A DNA stretch of 64,000 nucleotides, taken from positions 1 to 64,000 of IMG/VR virus record IMGVR_UViG_3300020576_002361, one strand, 5' to 3'. A model generated the notes under the pieces. The model saw nothing but the letters and a program-made list of their open reading frames with translations. It had not been told where the DNA came from and searched no databases. Of this stretch, positions 1,995-55,792 are shown piece by piece (position 1 is the stretch's first letter; each line of letters starts with the position of its first letter). Source of the stretch: a virus. Taxonomy: Duplodnaviria > Caudoviricetes. The position numbers and the translations under genes were made by a program.

Positions 1995-2890
1995 TACAGG
2001 AGATTCTAGACGAAGCCTTATACTACAGCCCGTTTCTAACCGGAAAACAGTTTGATGCTATTATATTAAAAGCTGCTCTAAAAACAGGATCGGATTCGAT
2101 ATCATTGAAATATGTTGAGCATATCCGAAATATCTTAGTAAATAACTTCTCCTGTGATTATTCAGAACTTACAAATAAAAGTTGTTTTTTGAACTATGAT
2201 TTCCTGAAAGGACGGGTGGACTTCTACGATATTCCTACTTTTGCGTATATAACACTCTATAATGGGCTTTCTGGTCCTCCTTATGTTGTTTCTACAACCA
2301 GTTTTAAGTTGAGAATAGATCATCGACTGCTCCCGAGGTTCTTAGAGCAATCTACCATAAATACAAATGAAGAATATAGGAACACGGTCCTCGAAGTACG
2401 AGGAAAGCATCCACCGGAAAAAAGAATAGTTTGCGGAAGAAGATTAGCGTTTGCTACAAAGCTGTGCCCAGATATAGTCGCTCGATCACCCACTAATGTA
2501 GAAACTGTTACTATGGAAACATACATATTTGATTTATCAAACAGCATAAACTATAATGATAGGCTACTTCTAATCCATATTAGGACTCCCACCGGAGTTT
2601 TCATCATGGAGATAAGCGATATTGATCCTACGAGTATATGGGTGGATAAAAAATTCTACGCAGACAATCCACAAATCCCAAATTTTATCGATTGGCTAAA
2701 AGAAGGACTGCTGGATAATATGACCATAGAGCAAGTCTATAATCATATAAGAAATAAACTATTCTATCCAGAGACAGAAGATGTTGACTCCGACTATTGT
2801 AAGTGTATCATATATACATGTAACAAACAAGAAATCATTCACTCTGAATCTTCTTCTATATCTATAAATCACGAAAATTGGTATATTTAG
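1991..2890 (+). CDS. Hypothetical protein (299 aa)
   Basis: Long ORF, SD GGAGG upstream; ends in TAG; no recognised motif. Confidence 0.7.
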   Translation: MIQEILDEALYYSPFLTGKQFDAIILKAALKTGSDSISLKYVEHIRNILVNNFSCDYSELTNKSCFLNYDFLKGRVDFYDIPTFAYITLYNGLSGPPYVVSTTSFKLRIDHRLLPRFLEQSTINTNEEYRNTVLEVRGKHPPEKRIVCGRRLAFATKLCPDIVARSPTNVETVTMETYIFDLSNSINYNDRLLLIHIRTPTGVFIMEISDIDPTSIWVDKKFYADNPQIPNFIDWLKEGLLDNMTIEQVYNHIRNKLFYPETEDVDSDYCKCIIYTCNKQEIIHSESSSISINHENWYI

Positions 2891-2963
2891 GGAATATGGT
2901 CCAAAAGGTCATAGGGCGCAGGCCTCATAAGCTTGAGATTCTGGTTCGATTCCAGATATTCCT
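2891..2963 (+). tRNA. tRNA-Met/Ile2 (CAT)
   Basis: Acceptor GGAATAT/ATATTCC, anticodon arm CAGGC-CT CAT AA-GCTTG, TTCGATT loop. Confidence 0.85.
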
Positions 2964-2968
2964 ATGTT

Positions 2969-3039
2969 GAGTTTGTAGTTCAGTGGCAGAACAGGAATCT
3001 CTAAAATTCTATGCGTGGGTCCGATTCCCACCAAACTCA
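2969..3039 (+). tRNA. Amber suppressor tRNA (anticodon CUA)
   Basis: Acceptor GAGTTTG/CAAACTC, D-stem GTTC/GAAC, anticodon arm GGAAT-CT CTA AA-ATTCT (CTA at 3001-3003), T-stem GTGGG/CCCAC with loop TCCGATT, A73. Confidence 0.85.
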
Positions 3040-3044
3040 TTATT

Positions 3045-3116
3045 GTCTTCTGAGCTTGTAAGGCTAAGCACCTGACTCTTAATCAGGAGAACAGAGTTCG
3101 ATTCTCTGAGGAGACA
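3045..3116 (+). tRNA. tRNA-Lys (CTT)
   Basis: Cloverleaf with CCTGA-CT CTT AA-TCAGG. Confidence 0.85.
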
Positions 3117-3142
3117 CTTTAACCCTTTATAGGAGGTATTAT

Positions 3143-3466
3143 ATGAGTTAGGAATATGTATACGTATTTGTTAGGAAAGACCTGAGTTATTCTCAAATTT
3201 GTGTTCAAGCAATCCATGCGGTTATTGAACATTGTAAGAACTTTTCTCCGTATGAGAATGTACACCCAAACGTGATTGTTTTCGAGATAGAGGATGAAAA
3301 ATCCTTAATATTAGAAATGAATAAACTATCAAACAAAGGGGTAGATCTGGTTCCTTTCTACGAACCGGATATAAACAACAGATTAACATCATTCGCATGT
3401 AAGACTGTTTCTGGATTAAACAGAAAGACATTTTCAAAATATAAGCTTTTAGGAGAAAAGAAATGA
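3143..3466 (+). CDS. Peptidyl-tRNA hydrolase type 2-like protein (107 codons) with in-frame TAG at codon 3
   Basis: SD AGGAGG at 3131-3136, then ATG AGT TAG GAA TAT GTA... The frame continues as YVFVRKDLSYSQICVQAIHA...FYEPDINNRLTSFA (PTH2-family VRKDL, Q-x-x-HA and EPD motifs). The ORF track catches only 3272-3466. Confidence 0.8.
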
Positions 3467-3948
3467 ACGATGTAAATGTAGGATGCGTAGAAATCGGTAC
3501 CGCTCACGAAGGTAAGTATGGTTTTTACTGCGTAGATAAGACTACTTGGAATAAGATAAAGGTTATTCGCAAGCATTTCTATAGAACTTTAACAAAGGCT
3601 CATGCTTGGCAAAGGTATTACTCTAAAGCTAAACACAACAGAAAAGGTATTGCTCCAGAGCTTTCTCCAGTCGACCTGGTCTTCTGCGAGCAGCTACCAA
3701 CATTCGAATACGTAAGAACCCCTTGGTTCCCTAAGAAATATCTTCAAACCCAAAAAAATCATGAAACCTATTTGAATGTGGATATTCGAATAGTGGAAAT
3801 CATGGAAGTGGCCAGGATGAACTGGGCAACCAAAGAAGTAGCTGAAAAGTTCTCTTTGACCAAGGTTCAGCTAGATTCTGGTCATATGTGTGGTATGGGA
3901 TATTATGTTAATATGATGTATGATAAGATAACACAAGCCTTAAGATAA
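3463..3948 (+). CDS. Hypothetical protein (161 aa)
   Basis: ORF coupled to the upstream stop (ATGA). Confidence 0.7.
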   Translation: MNDVNVGCVEIGTAHEGKYGFYCVDKTTWNKIKVIRKHFYRTLTKAHAWQRYYSKAKHNRKGIAPELSPVDLVFCEQLPTFEYVRTPWFPKKYLQTQKNHETYLNVDIRIVEIMEVARMNWATKEVAEKFSLTKVQLDSGHMCGMGYYVNMMYDKITQALR

Positions 3949-3985
3949 CCTTTATTCAGAAGCGATAGAAATATCGCTTCTTGAT

Positions 3986-4013
3986 TTGACTTTAGAGTTT
4001 AAGAGAGTATAAT
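3986..4013 (+). promoter_or_regulatory. Promoter TTGACT-N16-TATAAT
   Basis: Directly upstream of ATG 4019. Confidence 0.75.
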
Positions 4014-4018
4014 ATATT

Positions 4019-4579
4019 ATGAAACTCGATAGATTAGAGATTGAAAGATTACAGTCCAATTTAGAAGCTTCAAAGCAAAAGTTAGGAAGAGACCGAGCAG
4101 CCCTTAATGGACTCATTCTCGAAAGAACAAACGAAGTGGTGGGGGTGATAATTACTACTTTGGGGTATAAAGCATATGACAACAAGGGTAATATGCTTTT
4201 TGCTTTCTCGGTTAATTGTCATTGCCAAGAATGCTATGGTGGCGATCCTGATTATAATACGCATGATTGTATGTTCGATAATTTGGAGGGTGCTATAAAC
4301 GAGGGAATATATATTCTTTATAGCACCGGCTCCAAAAAATGGGACTCCTTGTCTACGGGAAAACATGATTATAAAAAATCTGGAATACCGAAAGAATTTC
4401 TATACATGGACGACGAAGATATAAAAGCACATCTAGAAAAACAAATACTGGCTTCCAAAATAACCCAAGAAAAGCGCAAAAAGACAACAGAAGGAAAAAA
4501 GCAGGAAAAAGAAAAAGTCAAGAAAGCTGCTTTGGCTAAACTGACTGATGAGGAAAAGAAGATTTTGGGAGTTAAATAA
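4019..4579 (+). CDS. Hypothetical protein with Lys-rich C-terminal motif
   Basis: ORF; ends AALAKLTDEEKKILGVK. Confidence 0.7.
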   Translation: MKLDRLEIERLQSNLEASKQKLGRDRAALNGLILERTNEVVGVIITTLGYKAYDNKGNMLFAFSVNCHCQECYGGDPDYNTHDCMFDNLEGAINEGIYILYSTGSKKWDSLSTGKHDYKKSGIPKEFLYMDDEDIKAHLEKQILASKITQEKRKKTTEGKKQEKEKVKKAALAKLTDEEKKILGVK

Positions 4580-49026: not shown

Positions 49027-50622
49027 TTATGGCTTTTGAAACACAAATATAGGCTCGTATTTATGGTATTTTCCGTTTACTTTGCAATAATTTTTACATT
49101 TTGGTATACCATTAGAATCCAATCTTTGACTCCCGGGCATGGATGCTAAGGTCATCTTTAATGTTTCTCGGTATTTCATACCAAGAGAAAGCAAATAAGA
49201 CTTAGAATCCTCTTCTAGTGGCATATAAACACCATCAACCAAAATATCAGCAATATTCCACGCAATGTATCCACCAGATTTCAACCAATTATAGCAAGTA
49301 AGTAGGGTTGGACGTAAAAACCCATCCCTCCACGATTCATACGAAGAACCGTATTTAACGCCGGCTTGGTTTGGATCTTTAGAATAAAGTTCCCTTTGCC
49401 AATAAGGCGGGGAGGTAAATATTAAATCAACTTTACCCTTATATTGCTGGAATCTAGGATGTTTATGTATTTCTTCTGATCCCTCTTGGTAAATATCGTA
49501 AGTATTCTGTTGCCCAAATATAGGATTGTTTCTATACGTGTGCGTATTTACAAAATCGGCTACGTGTTGATATTTGGATTTACCATCTGTATGAATGTTA
49601 TCTGGGTTTGGATCTGTTCCAACGTAGTGAATCTTGCGGTCTGTCGCAACAGTCATAGCCCCTAATATTCTTCCAGCCCAACCAGACGAGGGATCATAAA
49701 CGATAATAGGGTCTACTTTATCCACAAGATGATCAGTGTATTTCTCATAGATATACTTAGCAGTCAAAGGTGGAAAGTTAATAGGCACAGAAATGTATCC
49801 TATTCGATAAGCCGTAAATGCTTTCGGATAAAGCTTCTGACCTTTTTCAAAAAGTCTAATAAGATAGATATGCCCATCTTTTAGCTGGTTTATCGTAATA
49901 TTAGCTAAGTTGATATGACTAAATCCATACTTCCCATGGACTTCTAATAACTCTTCTTTAGTTAGAGCCAAAAAATCACTTTGTTTTACTTGATAATACC
50001 CAGTAGACACTTCAGTATTCACTTCGGATTCTTGAATCCAGAAGTCGTAATCTTGAAAAATCGTGTCTTTGTGTGTATAATATTCATGTATCCACTCGAC
50101 ACCACTATCAACATCTACTAAAGCTGACTTTACATCATGCTTCTTTATACACAAACTGTAATGGTAGAACGAATCTCTTCGGAAGTGCCTACGACTTCTC
50201 TTTAGCATAGAAGGCAAATACTTGTCGTTAGCAAACATGTCATAAACAGAGTATCCATTAGTACTCATACCATAACACATAGCTACCTTCATCATATTAG
50301 AAAAGAACTGGTCTACCTCTGTTCCAAGATGAAGATTATTAATGATAACTGACCCCTTTTCATTAGGGGTCAGCTCATCGTCATATTTGAATTTCGATAC
50401 AGGAGCACTGGTCATATCATTGAAACCAGATACCATCTCTTCAAAAGAACGCCCAGATCTGGCTGGGCATCCGTAGGTATTCCATGCTTCTAATATTTTG
50501 GATCTAGAATGCTTAACCCATTCATCAAATTCGTCTAGTGTCATAGACAGAATTTGATCGAAGGTTACGTTAACAGTAGGATCTTTGAGTATAGGGTTCT
50601 TTTGGTAGTATGGATCACTCAT
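49027..50622 (-). CDS. Large DNA methyltransferase-like protein (531 aa)
   Basis: YDPSSGWAGR (motif I-like), FTSPPY, YEPIFVF. Confidence 0.75.
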   Translation of the reverse strand: MSDPYYQKNPILKDPTVNVTFDQILSMTLDEFDEWVKHSRSKILEAWNTYGCPARSGRSFEEMVSGFNDMTSAPVSKFKYDDELTPNEKGSVIINNLHLGTEVDQFFSNMMKVAMCYGMSTNGYSVYDMFANDKYLPSMLKRSRRHFRRDSFYHYSLCIKKHDVKSALVDVDSGVEWIHEYYTHKDTIFQDYDFWIQESEVNTEVSTGYYQVKQSDFLALTKEELLEVHGKYGFSHINLANITINQLKDGHIYLIRLFEKGQKLYPKAFTAYRIGYISVPINFPPLTAKYIYEKYTDHLVDKVDPIIVYDPSSGWAGRILGAMTVATDRKIHYVGTDPNPDNIHTDGKSKYQHVADFVNTHTYRNNPIFGQQNTYDIYQEGSEEIHKHPRFQQYKGKVDLIFTSPPYWQRELYSKDPNQAGVKYGSSYESWRDGFLRPTLLTCYNWLKSGGYIAWNIADILVDGVYMPLEEDSKSYLLSLGMKYRETLKMTLASMPGSQRLDSNGIPKCKNYCKVNGKYHKYEPIFVFQKP

Positions 50623-51241
50623 GCTCTTCTTTCCATTGAGTTATTCTTTCAATACTCATATCAAAAACTTCTTTGACTATTTCGGATCCTATATAATCTC
50701 TGCCGTTATTTAAACAACCAATAGCAGTAGTTCTTGATCCCATAAAAGGATCGTATATAGTTTGTCCTTGTTTGGTATAACCCAAGATAAATGGATTAAT
50801 CACTTCAGTAACGAAGTTATCATTATACTTCTTGTGCTTCTCAAACGGAATAACAAACACATCGGGCAGGGATGGATTAATCTTAATAGAAGGATTCTTA
50901 AAAAATGTCATTATGTAAGTATAGTTAAATCTATATAAATTTACTTTAGTAGACTTAACCCAAATCTTCTGGGTGCTGATTCGCCAGCCCATATTTTCCA
51001 TAATACTATTGACTATAGCATGTTTCTGTATTAAACTACCATTACACTTTCTATCGGACATGAATATAGTCATGTATCCGTTAGATGGAGTCAAATTTGT
51101 TAGCCGTTTGCTAAGGAAAAACCCATAGTTATCGTCACCAGGTTTCATTCCTATCTCTTCGTAATCGGGAGGAGAAGTTAGCACATAATCATACTTTATT
51201 TCTCTGTTCTGTGTTGTATAGCAATCCTCATTATACATCAT
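50615..51241 (-). CDS. DNA methyltransferase (beta class) with variant motif I
   Basis: LTSPPDY; YDPFMGSRTT. Confidence 0.8.
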   Translation of the reverse strand: MMYNEDCYTTQNREIKYDYVLTSPPDYEEIGMKPGDDNYGFFLSKRLTNLTPSNGYMTIFMSDRKCNGSLIQKHAIVNSIMENMGWRISTQKIWVKSTKVNLYRFNYTYIMTFFKNPSIKINPSLPDVFVIPFEKHKKYNDNFVTEVINPFILGYTKQGQTIYDPFMGSRTTAIGCLNNGRDYIGSEIVKEVFDMSIERITQWKEEHE

Positions 51242-51785
51242 ATTCTTCGTTCTCCCCAAACAAGAATGCGTACATCAACAAGAATCTAAATTTAGATTTC
51301 TCTTGTGTCCATGGATTGATTACTATATCCAAAGGAAGAACCGGATTACTAAAATCAGCAGATCCCCCGGTTATAAGATTATCTGCCTCAGTAAAGAGTA
51401 TTCTGTTGTCAACTTCAGACACTATACTAGAATACTTATCAGGAATAGGCATATTAAACTTCTCATATATTACTTTTTGGCATTTATCTTCATATAATCG
51501 ATAGTTTCCTAGCTTATACTTCAATGGTCTTGGAACATCCACACAGTATGCTTCGGAAGCATCGTGAAGCAATGCGTACTTGGCTGCTTCCTTATCATAG
51601 GTAGTCTCAAAGACCCACTTAGCACAGAGCGTCGAGTGTTGGGCTACACTATAGAAACTTGTGCATTGTCCAGCAAATCGACATTGGTTGGATAAGGCGT
51701 GTGCGATATCCGCAATATCAATCATATCTGGAGTAGGTTCATCATAATAATATTTCTTGCCGGTAAACGTTTTAATAAAACTCAT
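51231..51785 (-). CDS. HD-domain phosphohydrolase (YfbR/5'-deoxynucleotidase-like)
   Basis: IAHALSNQCRFAG...YSVAQHS...LLHDASEAY..DVPRPLK. Confidence 0.85.
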   Translation of the reverse strand: MSFIKTFTGKKYYYDEPTPDMIDIADIAHALSNQCRFAGQCTSFYSVAQHSTLCAKWVFETTYDKEAAKYALLHDASEAYCVDVPRPLKYKLGNYRLYEDKCQKVIYEKFNMPIPDKYSSIVSEVDNRILFTEADNLITGGSADFSNPVLPLDIVINPWTQEKSKFRFLLMYAFLFGENEEYDV

Positions 51786-51790
51786 AGTAA

Positions 51791-51818
51791 ATCATACTCT
51801 TTCTTTATCTTAAGTCAA
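51791..51818 (-). promoter_or_regulatory. Promoter TTGACT-N16-TATGAT
   Basis: Overlaps gp46 stop; upstream of the HD gene. Confidence 0.65.
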
Positions 51819-53767
51819 GACATCTTGCTGAAATTGTTCTTCTTTTCCACTCTAATAGATCTGTCAAATTTGTCTGTTAATATATCTCCCTTATGGGAAA
51901 TAACGAATACGTGAGTATTCACACTAAGATGCTTGAGTAACTTCAGAAAATCTTCTGTTCCAGAAGCATCCAATGAGCTATCAAATACCTCATCCAATAT
52001 AAGGATATTAGTATTAGTGCTGTTCTTGGCTCTTGCTATTTCTCTCCAGGTTAACATCAAAGCCATATCGATTCTGAATTTCTCGCCTTCAGAAAACGAG
52101 TTATACTCAAAGTCATCTCGGTGCCTACTCTTTATCTTTTCCTTAAACGATTCATCTAGGTTGAAATTAACAAAGAAATCCATAGCACTCAAATACTTGT
52201 TAATATACTTGTTCATAAGAGGCAGATACTGCTTGACTATTTTGGACTTAATACCGTTATCTTTCAATAAAACTTGAATAATATCGTAGTCATATTTTCT
52301 CAGCATTATCTCTTCTTTTTTAGCGAGATTATCCTTTATATTCTTTCTGAGTAACTCTACCTTTTCCTCTTCCTCCTTTATAGTTTCATCTATATTTAGG
52401 TCCAATGTGTTTCGGATTTTAAGTATGTAGTTATTTGACTCGGAAATCCTAACATCAATCATAGAAATACTAGAAGATATATCCTGAATTTCTCTTAATA
52501 TTTGCTTAGCAGCATCGATATTTTTTCTTGTTTTGTCTATCTTCTTGTCTATCTTGGTTACAGCAGAGTTGATTTCTTCTAACTTCTTAGACATAGAACT
52601 GACTGTCTCGTCTCTGAATAGAGCATCTATAGCTCTTTTACAAGTAGGACAGGAATCATTTTCATTATAAAATTGAATAGACTTAGTTATATTCTTTCCT
52701 TCTGTTCCTATAGTAATACGTAGGGAAGTAAATTCCTTTATTTCATCTTCGCATTTAGAAAAAGGCAGCAAAGATTCTTTCTTTTCTTCTAACACTTTCA
52801 TCAATGCTTTCTTTTCTTCCGCAAGCTTAGCATTAGAAGACTCGGCTTCCTTTATTTGTTGTATCTTCTCTTGTCTATCTTTATTATTTCTGGACTTCAG
52901 CTTAGCTATGTGGTCTTCATGAATCTTACATTTTCCTTCATCAGAAGAGATTTCAGATTCTATGGATTTTATATCCTCTCTTAGGAGAGAATACTTTTCC
53001 TTTAGAACTCCATTCATTCTAGTGAAAACCTTAAGATCCAACAGCTCCTCGATCACTTCTCGTCGTTGGCTGCTCGTTAACTGCATAAATGGGACATAGT
53101 TAGCAGAACCCAAGACTACCAATTGAGCAAAAGAATCAAAGTTAAGCTTCAATATGTTTTGCTCTAGATGCTTCTGATAGTCTAGATTCTTAGCGTCTTG
53201 ATTTAAAAGTACACCGTCGCAATAGATCTCAAATACAACTGGTTTTAATCCACGTATTATTTTATATTCTTGCTTTCCTACGCTAAACTCTAACTCAGTA
53301 ATACAATCTTTATCATTTATGCTATTCACTATTCTGGGTTTGTTTATAAATCTATAAGCCCTACCGAATAGCGCAAAGGTCAACGCACACAAGAATGTGG
53401 AATTGTGTGACACTATTCCATTAGTATAATATTCCTTTACTGTGTTTACCTGTAAATCATATAAATCTTCTGTAAATTCGCAACAAGAAACACGTCTGAT
53501 CTCTTTTTTGCCTGTTTTTGTTAAAACAATATCACCAACTTGACAATCTTTCAGTTTTTTCCATCCGTTGTTTACAAAAATCTTATGATCCGGAGAACCT
53601 TCCAAATATTGATCTTCTGTTTCTATCTTTAAGATAGGCGAATCATAAGCCGTAATATCCGCCCATTCTATGTCATAAAACCCATGACGAGTTTCGACTT
53701 TTATCTTACCAATACAATCGGGATTTTGTTGGTAAAATTCTACTATATCTCCAACGGTGCATTTCAT
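51815..53767 (-). CDS. 46: gp46 recombination endonuclease ATPase, C-terminal gene: split-intein C-part (aa 1-122) plus C-extein
   Basis: Intein block B GSPDH and block G YYTNGIVSHN/S, then STFLCALTFALFG, CPTC hook, SFSEGEK signature, ILDEVFDSSLD, VISH. Confidence 0.9.
   Translation of the reverse strand: MKCTVGDIVEFYQQNPDCIGKIKVETRHGFYDIEWADITAYDSPILKIETEDQYLEGSPDHKIFVNNGWKKLKDCQVGDIVLTKTGKKEIRRVSCCEFTEDLYDLQVNTVKEYYTNGIVSHNSTFLCALTFALFGRAYRFINKPRIVNSINDKDCITELEFSVGKQEYKIIRGLKPVVFEIYCDGVLLNQDAKNLDYQKHLEQNILKLNFDSFAQLVVLGSANYVPFMQLTSSQRREVIEELLDLKVFTRMNGVLKEKYSLLREDIKSIESEISSDEGKCKIHEDHIAKLKSRNNKDRQEKIQQIKEAESSNAKLAEEKKALMKVLEEKKESLLPFSKCEDEIKEFTSLRITIGTEGKNITKSIQFYNENDSCPTCKRAIDALFRDETVSSMSKKLEEINSAVTKIDKKIDKTRKNIDAAKQILREIQDISSSISMIDVRISESNNYILKIRNTLDLNIDETIKEEEEKVELLRKNIKDNLAKKEEIMLRKYDYDIIQVLLKDNGIKSKIVKQYLPLMNKYINKYLSAMDFFVNFNLDESFKEKIKSRHRDDFEYNSFSEGEKFRIDMALMLTWREIARAKNSTNTNILILDEVFDSSLDASGTEDFLKLLKHLSVNTHVFVISHKGDILTDKFDRSIRVEKKNNFSKMS
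53402..53767 (-). other. Split intein C-fragment (122 aa)
   Basis: Ends His-Asn followed by Ser+1. Confidence 0.85.
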
Positions 53768-53833
53768 AATAAAGTTTCCACAAAAGTATCACATTCCTCT
53801 TTATTCCACAACAAACGCACTGAAATAACCGGA

Positions 53834-54052
53834 TCAGGGAAGATTTTGCCTATTTTTCAAAAATTCTTCAAATTTTTGCTTTACAGCAGGGTCTTCTATA
53901 GAAATATCTATTTCCGTAAGCTTTCTCACACATTTACCTTGACCATTTTGACCAGAAATCAAAGTAGTAGGAGATTGCGTAAGGTCTACTTCAGTCCAGT
54001 AGTTACCATACGAAAGAAAATTCTTCCATTTTACTTTTTTGAAACAAATCAA
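53834..54052 (-). CDS. 46: gp46 N-terminal gene: N-extein (40 aa) plus split-intein N-part (32 aa)
   Basis: FKKVKWKNFLSYGN...ISGQNGQGK then C1 (CVRKLTEI...); TTG start with SD AAGGAG. Confidence 0.85.
   Translation of the reverse strand: MICFKKVKWKNFLSYGNYWTEVDLTQSPTTLISGQNGQGKCVRKLTEIDISIEDPAVKQKFEEFLKNRQNLP
53837..53932 (-). other. Split intein N-fragment (32 aa)
   Basis: Cys immediately after the Walker A Lys. Confidence 0.8.
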
Positions 54053-54055
54053 ACA

Positions 54056-55114
54056 TTACTCCTTGTCTTCAGAAGACAAATCATAACTTTCATTATACAA
54101 ATCATTTATTATAGTTTTTAACCTATCAGCACAAACATCAGTTAGAGAATCTATTTCCTTAGAAATGATGCTAACGGTGTCCTGTGTCTGGTCAACTGTA
54201 TCAGTTGTATCTACAAAGAGGTCAACCTCTTCGATGATGTTAAATTCCGCTAGATTGGCTTGATAAAATCGATCAATTATTTTTTCAAGATCTTTTGGTT
54301 TTGTTTTCTTTCTCACCACAAACTTTACATAGCAATCTTTATACTTATCATAATCATAAACAGGAACAGAAGTGGTGTCATCGTAAACCAGCCTATAGAA
54401 TATCTTATATGGATTTTCAATAAACTCTAAATCTCCGTTACTTAAGTCTATTGTATGAAATCCTTTGCGTTCGTCTACATCTGCGAACGTCATATCATAC
54501 TGAGTTCCAAGGTAGTATATCTGCCCATCATCATGCTTCTGGTGAAAGTGTCCAGAGAAGACCTTGTGAAACATACCAACTTCTTCTTTATCTATTCCTT
54601 CTTCGCTTAAGATACCACGAAGAACCTGAAAACCCTTGATTGCGAAGTGACCAAATGACAAGGTAGACTTTGTTTCCTTGACAAAATCATGAAATCTAGA
54701 CATATTATTGTCGTTTAACCATGGAATCAAAGCTACGGTGTTGCCTTCTATAGAAACATCCGTTGGCTCGGAATACACCTTTACGTTAGGATAGTGTGAG
54801 TATAACTCCGTGGTGGAGTTTACTTCGGAAGTATTACGGAATACAATATCATGATTACCAAGAATCATGTGAAGAGTTATTCCCATTTTCATTAATGGTT
54901 CAAAGAACTCTGTTCTGCTAAACCGCAAAGTCTCTATATTTACATACTTCCTCTTATCCAGAAAATCACCAAGAAAGATGATAGTCTTGATGTCGTGTTC
55001 CTTAATATAAGGAAGTAGCAGATTATCCAAAAATGTCTTAATGTAAATACGGAATACAGGAGAATCCGATTTTAGCCCAAAATGCAGGTCATTTAATAAC
55101 AACACCTTACTCAA
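54056..55114 (-). CDS. 47: gp47 recombination endonuclease (Mre11/SbcD-like)
   Basis: DLHFG, LGDFLDKRK, GNHD, GHF, SGHFH. Confidence 0.95.
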   Translation of the reverse strand: MSKVLLLNDLHFGLKSDSPVFRIYIKTFLDNLLLPYIKEHDIKTIIFLGDFLDKRKYVNIETLRFSRTEFFEPLMKMGITLHMILGNHDIVFRNTSEVNSTTELYSHYPNVKVYSEPTDVSIEGNTVALIPWLNDNNMSRFHDFVKETKSTLSFGHFAIKGFQVLRGILSEEGIDKEEVGMFHKVFSGHFHQKHDDGQIYYLGTQYDMTFADVDERKGFHTIDLSNGDLEFIENPYKIFYRLVYDDTTSVPVYDYDKYKDCYVKFVVRKKTKPKDLEKIIDRFYQANLAEFNIIEEVDLFVDTTDTVDQTQDTVSIISKEIDSLTDVCADRLKTIINDLYNESYDLSSEDKE

Positions 55115-55740
55115 GGATCTTTCTCCATAAACTCATTCAACGGAGATATTTTCTTTGGTTTTTGGTTCTTATTTTCTTTAATTTTACTGGTTTTCTTATC
55201 GAAATATTCTACATCATTTTCATTAAGTTTAAAGAATTCTGCGTATATGTTATTCTTATCCGGATCTATCTCATACTTCTTGATTATGTGATCCTTCAAG
55301 GCTCCAGTAGTGTCAGCCCTTTCAAACAACTTCATCTTTACATAACATTGCTTCTTTTCCTTTTGGATCCTTCGCAAGAAGGCAAAGAATATGATTTGTG
55401 TAATATACGCAAAAGGATTCTTGGATTTCTCTGGATCAAAGTTATCCAGGTACATTATGGCATTTTCTATGCCATCGGAGACCATTTCTTCGCGAAACGT
55501 ATACCCTGCAAAATTTGGTCTAGATGATAGCCTTTCCGCAATTTTAAGGATTGCTGAACCTATGTACTCCGAAATCCTAGGTCGTGTAGTAAGTTCACCG
55601 GACGCAAACTTATTCATCTCTGTCTTATAAAGAATCATTTCTTTTAATAAAGTGTCATTATTTACATAATGGTTTGCGGTACACTCCTTTTCAATAACTA
55701 CTATTTCTTCTTCCGCCTTCTGTATTATTTCTTCTTTCAT
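55111..55740 (-). CDS. 55: Late-transcription sigma factor gp55
   Basis: HYVNND.LL, YIGSAILKIAERLS.RPNFAGYTFREEM.SDGIEN, NPFAYITQI.FFAFLRRI.KEKKQ; start MKEEII. Confidence 0.95.
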   Translation of the reverse strand: MKEEIIQKAEEEIVVIEKECTANHYVNNDTLLKEMILYKTEMNKFASGELTTRPRISEYIGSAILKIAERLSSRPNFAGYTFREEMVSDGIENAIMYLDNFDPEKSKNPFAYITQIIFFAFLRRIQKEKKQCYVKMKLFERADTTGALKDHIIKKYEIDPDKNNIYAEFFKLNENDVEYFDKKTSKIKENKNQKPKKISPLNEFMEKDP

Positions 55741-55764
55741 TGTAGACCCTTTGTGTACTAGTGT

Positions 55765-55792
55765 ATTATAGTACACCTTTGTTCAAAGTCAA
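55765..55792 (-). promoter_or_regulatory. Promoter TTGACT-N16-TATAAT
   Basis: Upstream of gp55. Confidence 0.75.

Follow-up and report, generated by a model that had tools for sequence, protein, structure and literature searches.

An atypically split intein within the Walker A motif of a phage gp46 gene, and a probable relic of the endonuclease gene proposed to have divided it

How could a phage make a working gp46 when the gene for this enzyme is broken inside the loop that binds ATP? The question is raised by a 64,000-nucleotide (nt) stretch of DNA from a T4-like water phage (IMG/VR record IMGVR_UViG_3300020576_002361, positions 1 to 64,000), hereafter the window, in which gp46 is present as two adjacent minus-strand genes. 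The first of them, the N gene (54052..53834), encodes 72 amino acids (aa) from a TTG start preceded, 6 nt upstream, by the sequence AAGGAG (54064-54059). Its product comprises a 40-aa N-extein (53933..54052), which is matched by Pfam AAA_23 over residues 6-40, aligns with the N-termini of relatives and ends in the Walker A residues GQNGQGK, and the N-terminal part of an intein, IntN (53837..53932; 32 aa), consisting of Cys1 and 31 further residues up to a TGA stop codon (53834-53836). A 66-nt spacer (53768..53833), in frame with both genes, leads to the C gene (53767..51815; 650 aa, ATG start). This gene begins with the C-terminal intein part, IntC (53402..53767; 122 aa), and continues into the C-extein (51815..53401; 528 aa plus stop), whose first residue is the +1 Ser that completes the Walker A motif (GK/ST). 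An earlier note on this DNA had described gp46 as two such genes; its coordinates for IntN and IntC, the Cys and 31 residues that it placed after GQNGQGK, and the 122 aa with GSPDH, VSHN and S-T-F-L that it read at the start of the second gene all agree exactly with both open reading frames (ORFs) as well as their translations.

Very probably, the two products are joined by trans-splicing through a split intein, and an endonuclease gene that once lay between the intein halves has since been deleted; both the expression of the genes and the splicing chemistry we infer. The gp46 protein, a Rad50/SbcC-like ATPase acting with gp47, would be made as two separately translated proteins, the break lying inside a class-1 mini-intein set between the Lys and the Ser of Walker A. 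The 32-residue IntN would dock onto the 122-residue IntC to give a complete HINT fold, and splicing would proceed through an N-S acyl shift at Cys1, trans-esterification to Ser+1, cyclisation of the Asn in the terminal HN and an O-N shift. The intein would be excised and the exteins ligated, so that gp46 would emerge as a 568-aa protein whose P-loop, GQNGQGKST, is whole. Its locus would be a late-stage fractured gene, in which a free-standing endonuclease gene split the intein and was later deleted, its last ~22 codons remaining as the spacer. With such a mechanism, an essential enzyme of recombination would rely on ligation after translation.

The residues on which splicing would rely are present in both halves. 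Cys1 directly follows GQNGQGK and is invariant in the eight split and six contiguous alleles examined. Within IntC, helix alpha1 (TVGDIVEFY) is followed by block B, which reads SPDH in the window and SP(D/E/N)H in nearly all aligned relatives, the exceptions being L016 (SEDH) and L001 (ADDH); relatives are cited here by their L and P numbers. Blocks F and G (DLYDLQV ... NGIVSHN) precede the +1 Ser, and SHN/S is invariant in the alignment of relatives, so that conservation extends to Cys1, the block B His, the terminal His-Asn and the +1 Ser. Once joined, the exteins read GQNGQGK-STFL. At the same site, intein-free gp46 proteins have GHGK-STLL (L009) or GAGK-STML (L014, Synechococcus phage ACG-2014d), and since intein-free relatives read GK-ST(L/M)LDA, splicing would rebuild a normal P-loop. 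The genes are separate, the N gene stopping at TGA after IntN residue 32 and the C gene having its own ATG at 53767. Natural atypically split inteins have IntN lengths of 15-37 aa (PMC13014065); an IntN of 32 aa fits this reported short-IntN range, and an IntC of 122 aa fits the long IntC (>100 aa). Thus, every sequence-level feature required of a naturally, atypically split class-1 intein is found, which supports this assignment.

The structure was predicted with AlphaFold2 (AF2) from aligned relatives and the translation of 54052..53390, in which stop codons were treated as residues. The resulting read-through model has a mean predicted local distance difference test (pLDDT) score of 85, with values of 85-98 in the intein parts and about 49 in the artificial linker. 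Its top Foldseek match is the VidaL split intein (E-value 3e-10, template-modelling score 0.87 on target), followed by the NrdJ-1, Npu DnaB and Mtu RecA inteins. In VIA-align, VidaL scored Z 20.3 (root-mean-square deviation 2.1, 143/145 residues aligned) and NrdJ-1 Z 20.0, and more than 80 intein and Hedgehog chains were matched at Z >8. A search of PDB with a profile built from contiguous relatives likewise retrieved NrdJ-1 (2.9e-11) and VidaL (6.8e-07). The two halves are thus predicted to form one complete HINT fold. The modelled fold, the catalytic residues and the joining of the exteins to a canonical P-loop support the earlier claim that the gene is interrupted by an atypically split intein.

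The modelled docking of IntN onto IntC is confident, and this would also suit an arrangement in which the fragments assemble non-covalently through the intein halves and, left unspliced, work as a gp46 of two chains. A fractured phage enzyme that assembles in this way is on record: the fragmented NrdA of Aeromonas phage Aeh1, held together by interaction domains (PMC3045599). However, an unspliced complex would keep a 154-residue domain inside the P-loop, between the Walker A Lys and Ser, and binding alone leaves unexplained why Cys1, SPDH, the terminal HN and Ser+1 are conserved across alleles that are 40-58% identical. Assembly without splicing is accordingly considered improbable, and trans-splicing is the preferred explanation of the same residues.

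The split recurs in relatives. A search with the IntC region returned 25 clusters, 41-86% identical, most of them 650-673 aa long, and at least 20 start at the same Met; in three or four of the 25 (P0007, P0023/P0018, P0026) N-extein, IntN and IntC are fused in one contiguous protein. A scan of viral contigs with a degenerate DNA pattern for EDLYDLQV found 16 loci, while a query with IntC alone gave none. Among these loci and L001, eight have a separate N gene ending 26-40 residues past Cys1 and three (L019, L021, L022) carry contiguous alleles; the others are cut by contig ends or lack the intein motifs used for sorting. The two-gene split is common to L015, L016, L017, L020, L024, L027, L030 and P0028. 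The relatives have an IntN of 26-36 aa and an IntC of 121-124 aa, and their spacers, of 112-268 nt, are in other frames. The check that the earlier note had proposed, for the same split at homologous gp46 loci, has therefore come out in its favor, in relatives from other samples that include the 72-aa N gene of P0028. The arrangement lies far beyond chance, as confirmed at the sequence level by the same architecture in many diverged relatives. A different kind of division is seen in L014 (2450-4266; Synechococcus phage ACG-2014d, KJ019034.1), whose intein-free gp46 is annotated as two overlapping coding sequences, 2450-3916 and 3889-4266, apparently because the frame shifts close to the C-terminus and not because of a split intein.

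The same comparisons bear on whether an error of sequencing or assembly has broken what is really a contiguous mini-intein allele of the kind seen in P0007 and L021. In favor of this, the record was assembled from a metagenome and the halves are in the same frame. Yet three separate stop codons and 23 extra codons would all have to be wrong, at a place where contiguous alleles have 2-5 residues. The N gene of the window is recorded on 8 contigs, and the 650-aa representative of the C-gene cluster differs from the window product at one residue. P0028, an independent homologue on an NCBI-sourced contig, is 82% identical, is exactly 72 aa long and has the same last residues and the same stop position, and the spacers of other relatives are not in frame. 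An error of this kind is very improbable.

Conservation of the intein halves can be compared with that of the exteins. In the nearest relatives, 28/32 IntN residues are identical (P0028) vs. 31/40 in the N-extein, and 106/122 IntC residues vs. 338/528 in the C-extein. Against P0004, the identities are 71/121 for IntC and 224/514 for the C-extein. Among the eight split alleles, mean pairwise identity is 0.44 for IntN, 0.48 for IntC, 0.46 for the N-extein and 0.38 for the first 120 residues of the C-extein. Judged by these identities, the intein halves are at least as constrained as the essential enzyme that they interrupt.

Three in-frame stops, a decayed spacer with a frameshift in its relic and a weak start signal of the C gene are what would be seen if the locus were a decaying gp46 pseudogene with non-functional intein halves. 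Both ORFs, of 72 and 650 codons, are nevertheless intact and keep every intein and ABC-ATPase motif; relatives 82-87% identical retain the same split and stop position, and their IntN differs by a small number of conservative changes, below the number in the exteins. In phage T4, gp46/47 are needed for recombination-dependent replication, which also speaks against loss of the gene. Decay into a pseudogene is unlikely.

The history of the locus is suggested by what lies between the halves elsewhere. An ORF of 350-403 aa is located there in L001, L015, L016, L017 and L020, and also in L028, where the N side is off the contig; its stop codon overlaps the IntC start as ATGA. The ORF of L001 (353 aa) matches DUF559, a Vsr-like nuclease fold (26.2 bits vs. 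a cut-off of 20.6). The L015-type ORFs share with it an N-terminal repeat module (EFW/EYW..KG..EEA; E-value 2e-33), and the same module characterizes the whole family of intervening ORFs of ~350 aa (L015 7176-8228, L016 5050-6111, L020 5294-6370, L028 17-781). No Pfam or PHROGs domain was found in the C-terminal part of the L015, L016 and L020 ORFs, which carries the motifs YPNS..RYDF and IEICP. These ORFs are called putative endonucleases by their position, by the repeat module common to the L001 ORF and by analogy with the loci of Dassa et al. (2009), and the C-terminal domain of the L015-type ORFs may be one of homing endonucleases that is as yet undescribed.

In the window, no endonuclease ORF lies between the halves, where only the 66-nt spacer is found, and its end overlaps the IntC start as the same ATGA. 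The earlier note was right that no endonuclease is located there, but the absence is a secondary loss, and the spacer a relic of the endonuclease-like gene. Graded remnants occur in the relatives. The L027 spacer (195 nt) encodes the last ~68 residues of the intervening ORF (tblastn E-value 1e-16), and the L024 spacer (268 nt) corresponds to the same ORF region, broken by stops (E-values 6e-08 to 9e-10). The window spacer, read in the frame of the ATGA overlap, resembles the tails of intervening ORFs with a single-frame empirical p of about 0.001, which is the conservative figure. When one -1 shift is allowed, at a position chosen post hoc, it matches the L015 ORF tail at 11/20 positions with a score of 57, which 0/20000 random composites reach. 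The relic in L030 is marginal (p 0.007 and 0.044). On this sequence evidence, the window spacer is a frameshifted relic of the last ~22 codons of a lost endonuclease-like gene, the T4-like phage allele stands at the endonuclease-lost stage, step III of Dassa et al. (2009), and the short-spacer alleles are secondary. The nearest IntC relatives of endonuclease-free alleles carry the endonuclease (identity 0.58 for L030 and L016, 0.57 for L024 and L015); these pairwise IntC identities suggest more than one endonuclease loss. Precisely where other alleles are split, the contiguous allele L022 (21-638) carries ~20 additional residues. An origin of this longer linker as an endonuclease relic was considered and found unsupported (p 0.15-0.25 against the endonuclease tail).

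In the earlier note the spacer was 66 nt long, with an in-frame TAA at 53801-53803 as the second stop. Length and TAA stand, but the in-frame stops between the halves number three rather than two: TGA 53836-34, TAA 53803-01 and TGA 53791-89. The in-frame arrangement would allow ribosomes to cross the spacer, by stop read-through, with a suppressor tRNA or by gene-60-like bypassing, and thus to make a precursor that splices in cis. T4-like phages are known for translational bypassing, and this phage has a tRNA with the anticodon CTA. Crossing is nonetheless contradicted by the lack of matching take-off and landing codons in the spacer and by relatives in which the halves are in other frames or have a 1-kb gene between them. 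The spacer RNA has no stable fold and is less structured than its shuffles (z +1.86). Two versions of crossing were rejected outright: read-through by the suppressor tRNA, since the anticodon CTA reads only TAG and the stops are TGA, TAA and TGA, and bypassing or a structured spacer RNA, since the RNA is less structured than the shuffled controls. Overall, it is extremely improbable that one precursor is made across the spacer. The tRNA itself, an amber suppressor labeled tRNA-Pyl by ARAGORN, is encoded at 2968-3040 (+) of the window, inside a tRNA cluster.

The type of split follows from where the break lies in the fold. Natural atypical splits are located either after beta2 (S1: VidaL, PolB16) or after alpha1 (S2: AceL-TerL, GOS-TerL) (PMC13014065). 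The N-terminus of NrdJ-1 comprises a first strand segment and a tight turn, followed by KTTIKEVVEIF, which forms a strand and helix alpha1. The profile alignment sets KCTVGDIVEFY of the window on this strand/alpha1 element, so the canonical alpha1 is inside IntC. The modelled IntN consists of a strand (47-51), an extra helix (55-69; pLDDT 91-97) and a short basic tail. Cys1 and the beta-strand segment thus fall within 14 canonical residues, after which come about 18 more, mostly helix and specific to the family. Contiguous alleles have the same helix in a shorter form, with 2-5 residues in place of the stop, spacer and start of the window. From the model and the alignment we infer that the split is S1-like, that is, VidaL-like, with an added family-specific helix, and not AceL-TerL-like. 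The same Walker A site of gp46 also hosts another intein lineage, which looks unrelated and has its split after alpha1 (L001 1741-4938, IntN of 40 aa; P0029, 31 aa).

A bolder proposal, which we regard as possible and somewhat doubtful, is that the gp46 family represents a distinct structural variant, with its break at the first beta-hairpin's tip (the region used in VidaL and PolB16) and with an added amphipathic IntN helix that serves as a docking handle. A single lineage would then keep every stage of split-intein evolution: contiguous, endonuclease-fractured, with a decaying endonuclease, and reduced to a 66-nt relic. Were this the case, ~14 residues might be enough for the catalytic N-piece, or it might be tuned. 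The family would also offer a direct natural test of the model of Dassa et al. (2009), along with a set of diverged inteins with a short IntN that may be orthogonal to one another.

Among known systems, the closest is VidaL, a naturally atypically split, cysteine-dependent intein with a 16-aa IntN and an S1 split after beta2 (PMC13014065; PDB 6vgv/6vgw). Like the window intein, it combines a short IntN and a long IntC with Cys1, it ranks first among the structural matches to the model, and its break precedes a strand and helix that align (KVTVQELRELY with KCTVGDIVEFY). The window intein, known from its sequence and a model, differs in its 32-aa IntN, its gp46 P-loop host and a sequence identity of only ~22%. 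PolB16 OarG is another atypically split intein, with a 15-aa IntN, and is cysteine-less, with Ser1/Ser+1 and no need for the block B His (PMC10189870). It shares the S1-region split and a metagenomic, phage-like origin, whereas the window intein has Cys1/Ser+1 and a conserved SP(D/E)H, and the structural match is weaker (Z 14.3). The S2 inteins AceL-TerL (IntN 25 aa) and GOS-TerL (37 aa), split after alpha1 (PMC13014065), resemble it in IntN length, in origin from uncultured phages and in a DNA-handling ATPase host. In the window, however, alpha1 (TVGDIVEFY, corresponding to TTIKEVVEIF of NrdJ-1) is in IntC and the break comes earlier; the TerL inteins were compared by their published description. 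NrdJ-1 is the best sequence-profile match, but it is canonically split (PMC13014065), unlike the window intein with its 32-aa IntN. The NrdJ-1 split intein is also among the fractured genes of Dassa et al. (2009), in which the gp41-7 locus has lost its endonuclease (step III; PMC2677866). The gp46 locus agrees with these in that a phage DNA-metabolism gene is broken inside an intein and that relatives have a free-standing ORF between the halves; it differs in that the window has no endonuclease gene, but a sequence remnant is still visible.

Neither gp46 nor SbcC nor Rad50 turned up when the text of Dassa et al. (2009; PMC2677866) was searched, and no paper linking a split intein to gp46, SbcC or Rad50 was found in the literature searched. 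Within that literature, the gp46/Rad50/SbcC Walker A host, the helix-extended IntN and the endonuclease remnant appear to be undescribed. The splicing mechanism, the lopsided split type and the fractured-gene history are of already known kinds, and the findings leave the known mechanism of splicing unchanged. The spacer remnant provides sequence-level evidence for the step from a fractured gene to a free split intein, with which the larger remnants in relatives agree. Natural short-N split inteins are few (AceL-TerL, GOS-TerL, VidaL and PolB16, plus the TerL-derived CAT intein, are named in PMC13014065) and are prized for semisynthesis and labeling because the short piece can be made chemically. 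Pairs that are fast, or orthogonal to each other, could be sought in this large natural family of at least 25 clusters, which are 41-87% identical in the intein.

Looked for in the 66-nt spacer, no terminator or promoter was found, and the halves are therefore probably co-transcribed. Other observations weigh against functional trans-splicing. A weak ribosome-binding site (GGAA at -12..-9) precedes the IntC ATG, and the window has lost the coupling of translation to the endonuclease gene that relatives show. The AF2 model joins the halves by an artificial covalent linker and does not probe the association of two chains. If the element has recently spread horizontally, this could account for the intein's higher conservation in place of selection for splicing. 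The finding of a single gp46 copy in the 78,975-nt record counts in favor of trans-splicing, but the record is a metagenomic fragment, estimated as 44% complete, and the genome may hold a second, intact gp46 elsewhere.

The identity of the enzyme is indicated by both its motifs and its surroundings. All ATPase motifs of the C-extein are intact: the zinc hook CPTC, the signature FSEGE, Walker B (ILILDE) and the H-loop (ISH). In Pfam, the C piece is matched by Intein_splicing (24.2 bits, below cut-off), SMC_N and SbcC_Walker_B, and the AAA_23, SMC_N and SbcC_Walker_B matches in gp46 are all below the curated cut-offs. The C-extein is 42-43% identical to cyanophage gp46. Directly upstream of the N gene is gp47 (54056..55114, minus strand), encoding the Mre11/SbcD-like nuclease partner of gp46 (Pfam Metallophos, E-value 8.8e-09), whose TAA stop codon lies 3 nt ahead of the gp46-N start. 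Together, the motifs and the adjoining Mre11/SbcD-like gene are those of a T4 gp46/Rad50/SbcC ABC-ATPase locus, to which the two genes are assigned. Ahead of gp47 (55114..54056) on the minus strand is a gene for a gp55-like sigma factor (55776..55111), and this gp55-gp47-gp46 synteny matches the cyanophage record L014.

Downstream of gp46, the minus-strand region 49027-51785 begins with a directly adjoining gene for a homologue of the YfbR-like HD-domain 5'-deoxynucleotidase (51231-51785). It is followed by two adjoining DNA methyltransferase ORFs, 50615-51259 (214 aa) and 49027-50622 (531 aa), the ends of which overlap by 8 nt. Beyond the window, the same record contains two more Intein_splicing matches, at 69454-69876 (-) and 75126-75362 (-), one of them above the Pfam cut-off. 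The open frames that contain them are 953 and 598 aa long, and the phage fragment thus carries at least three inteins.

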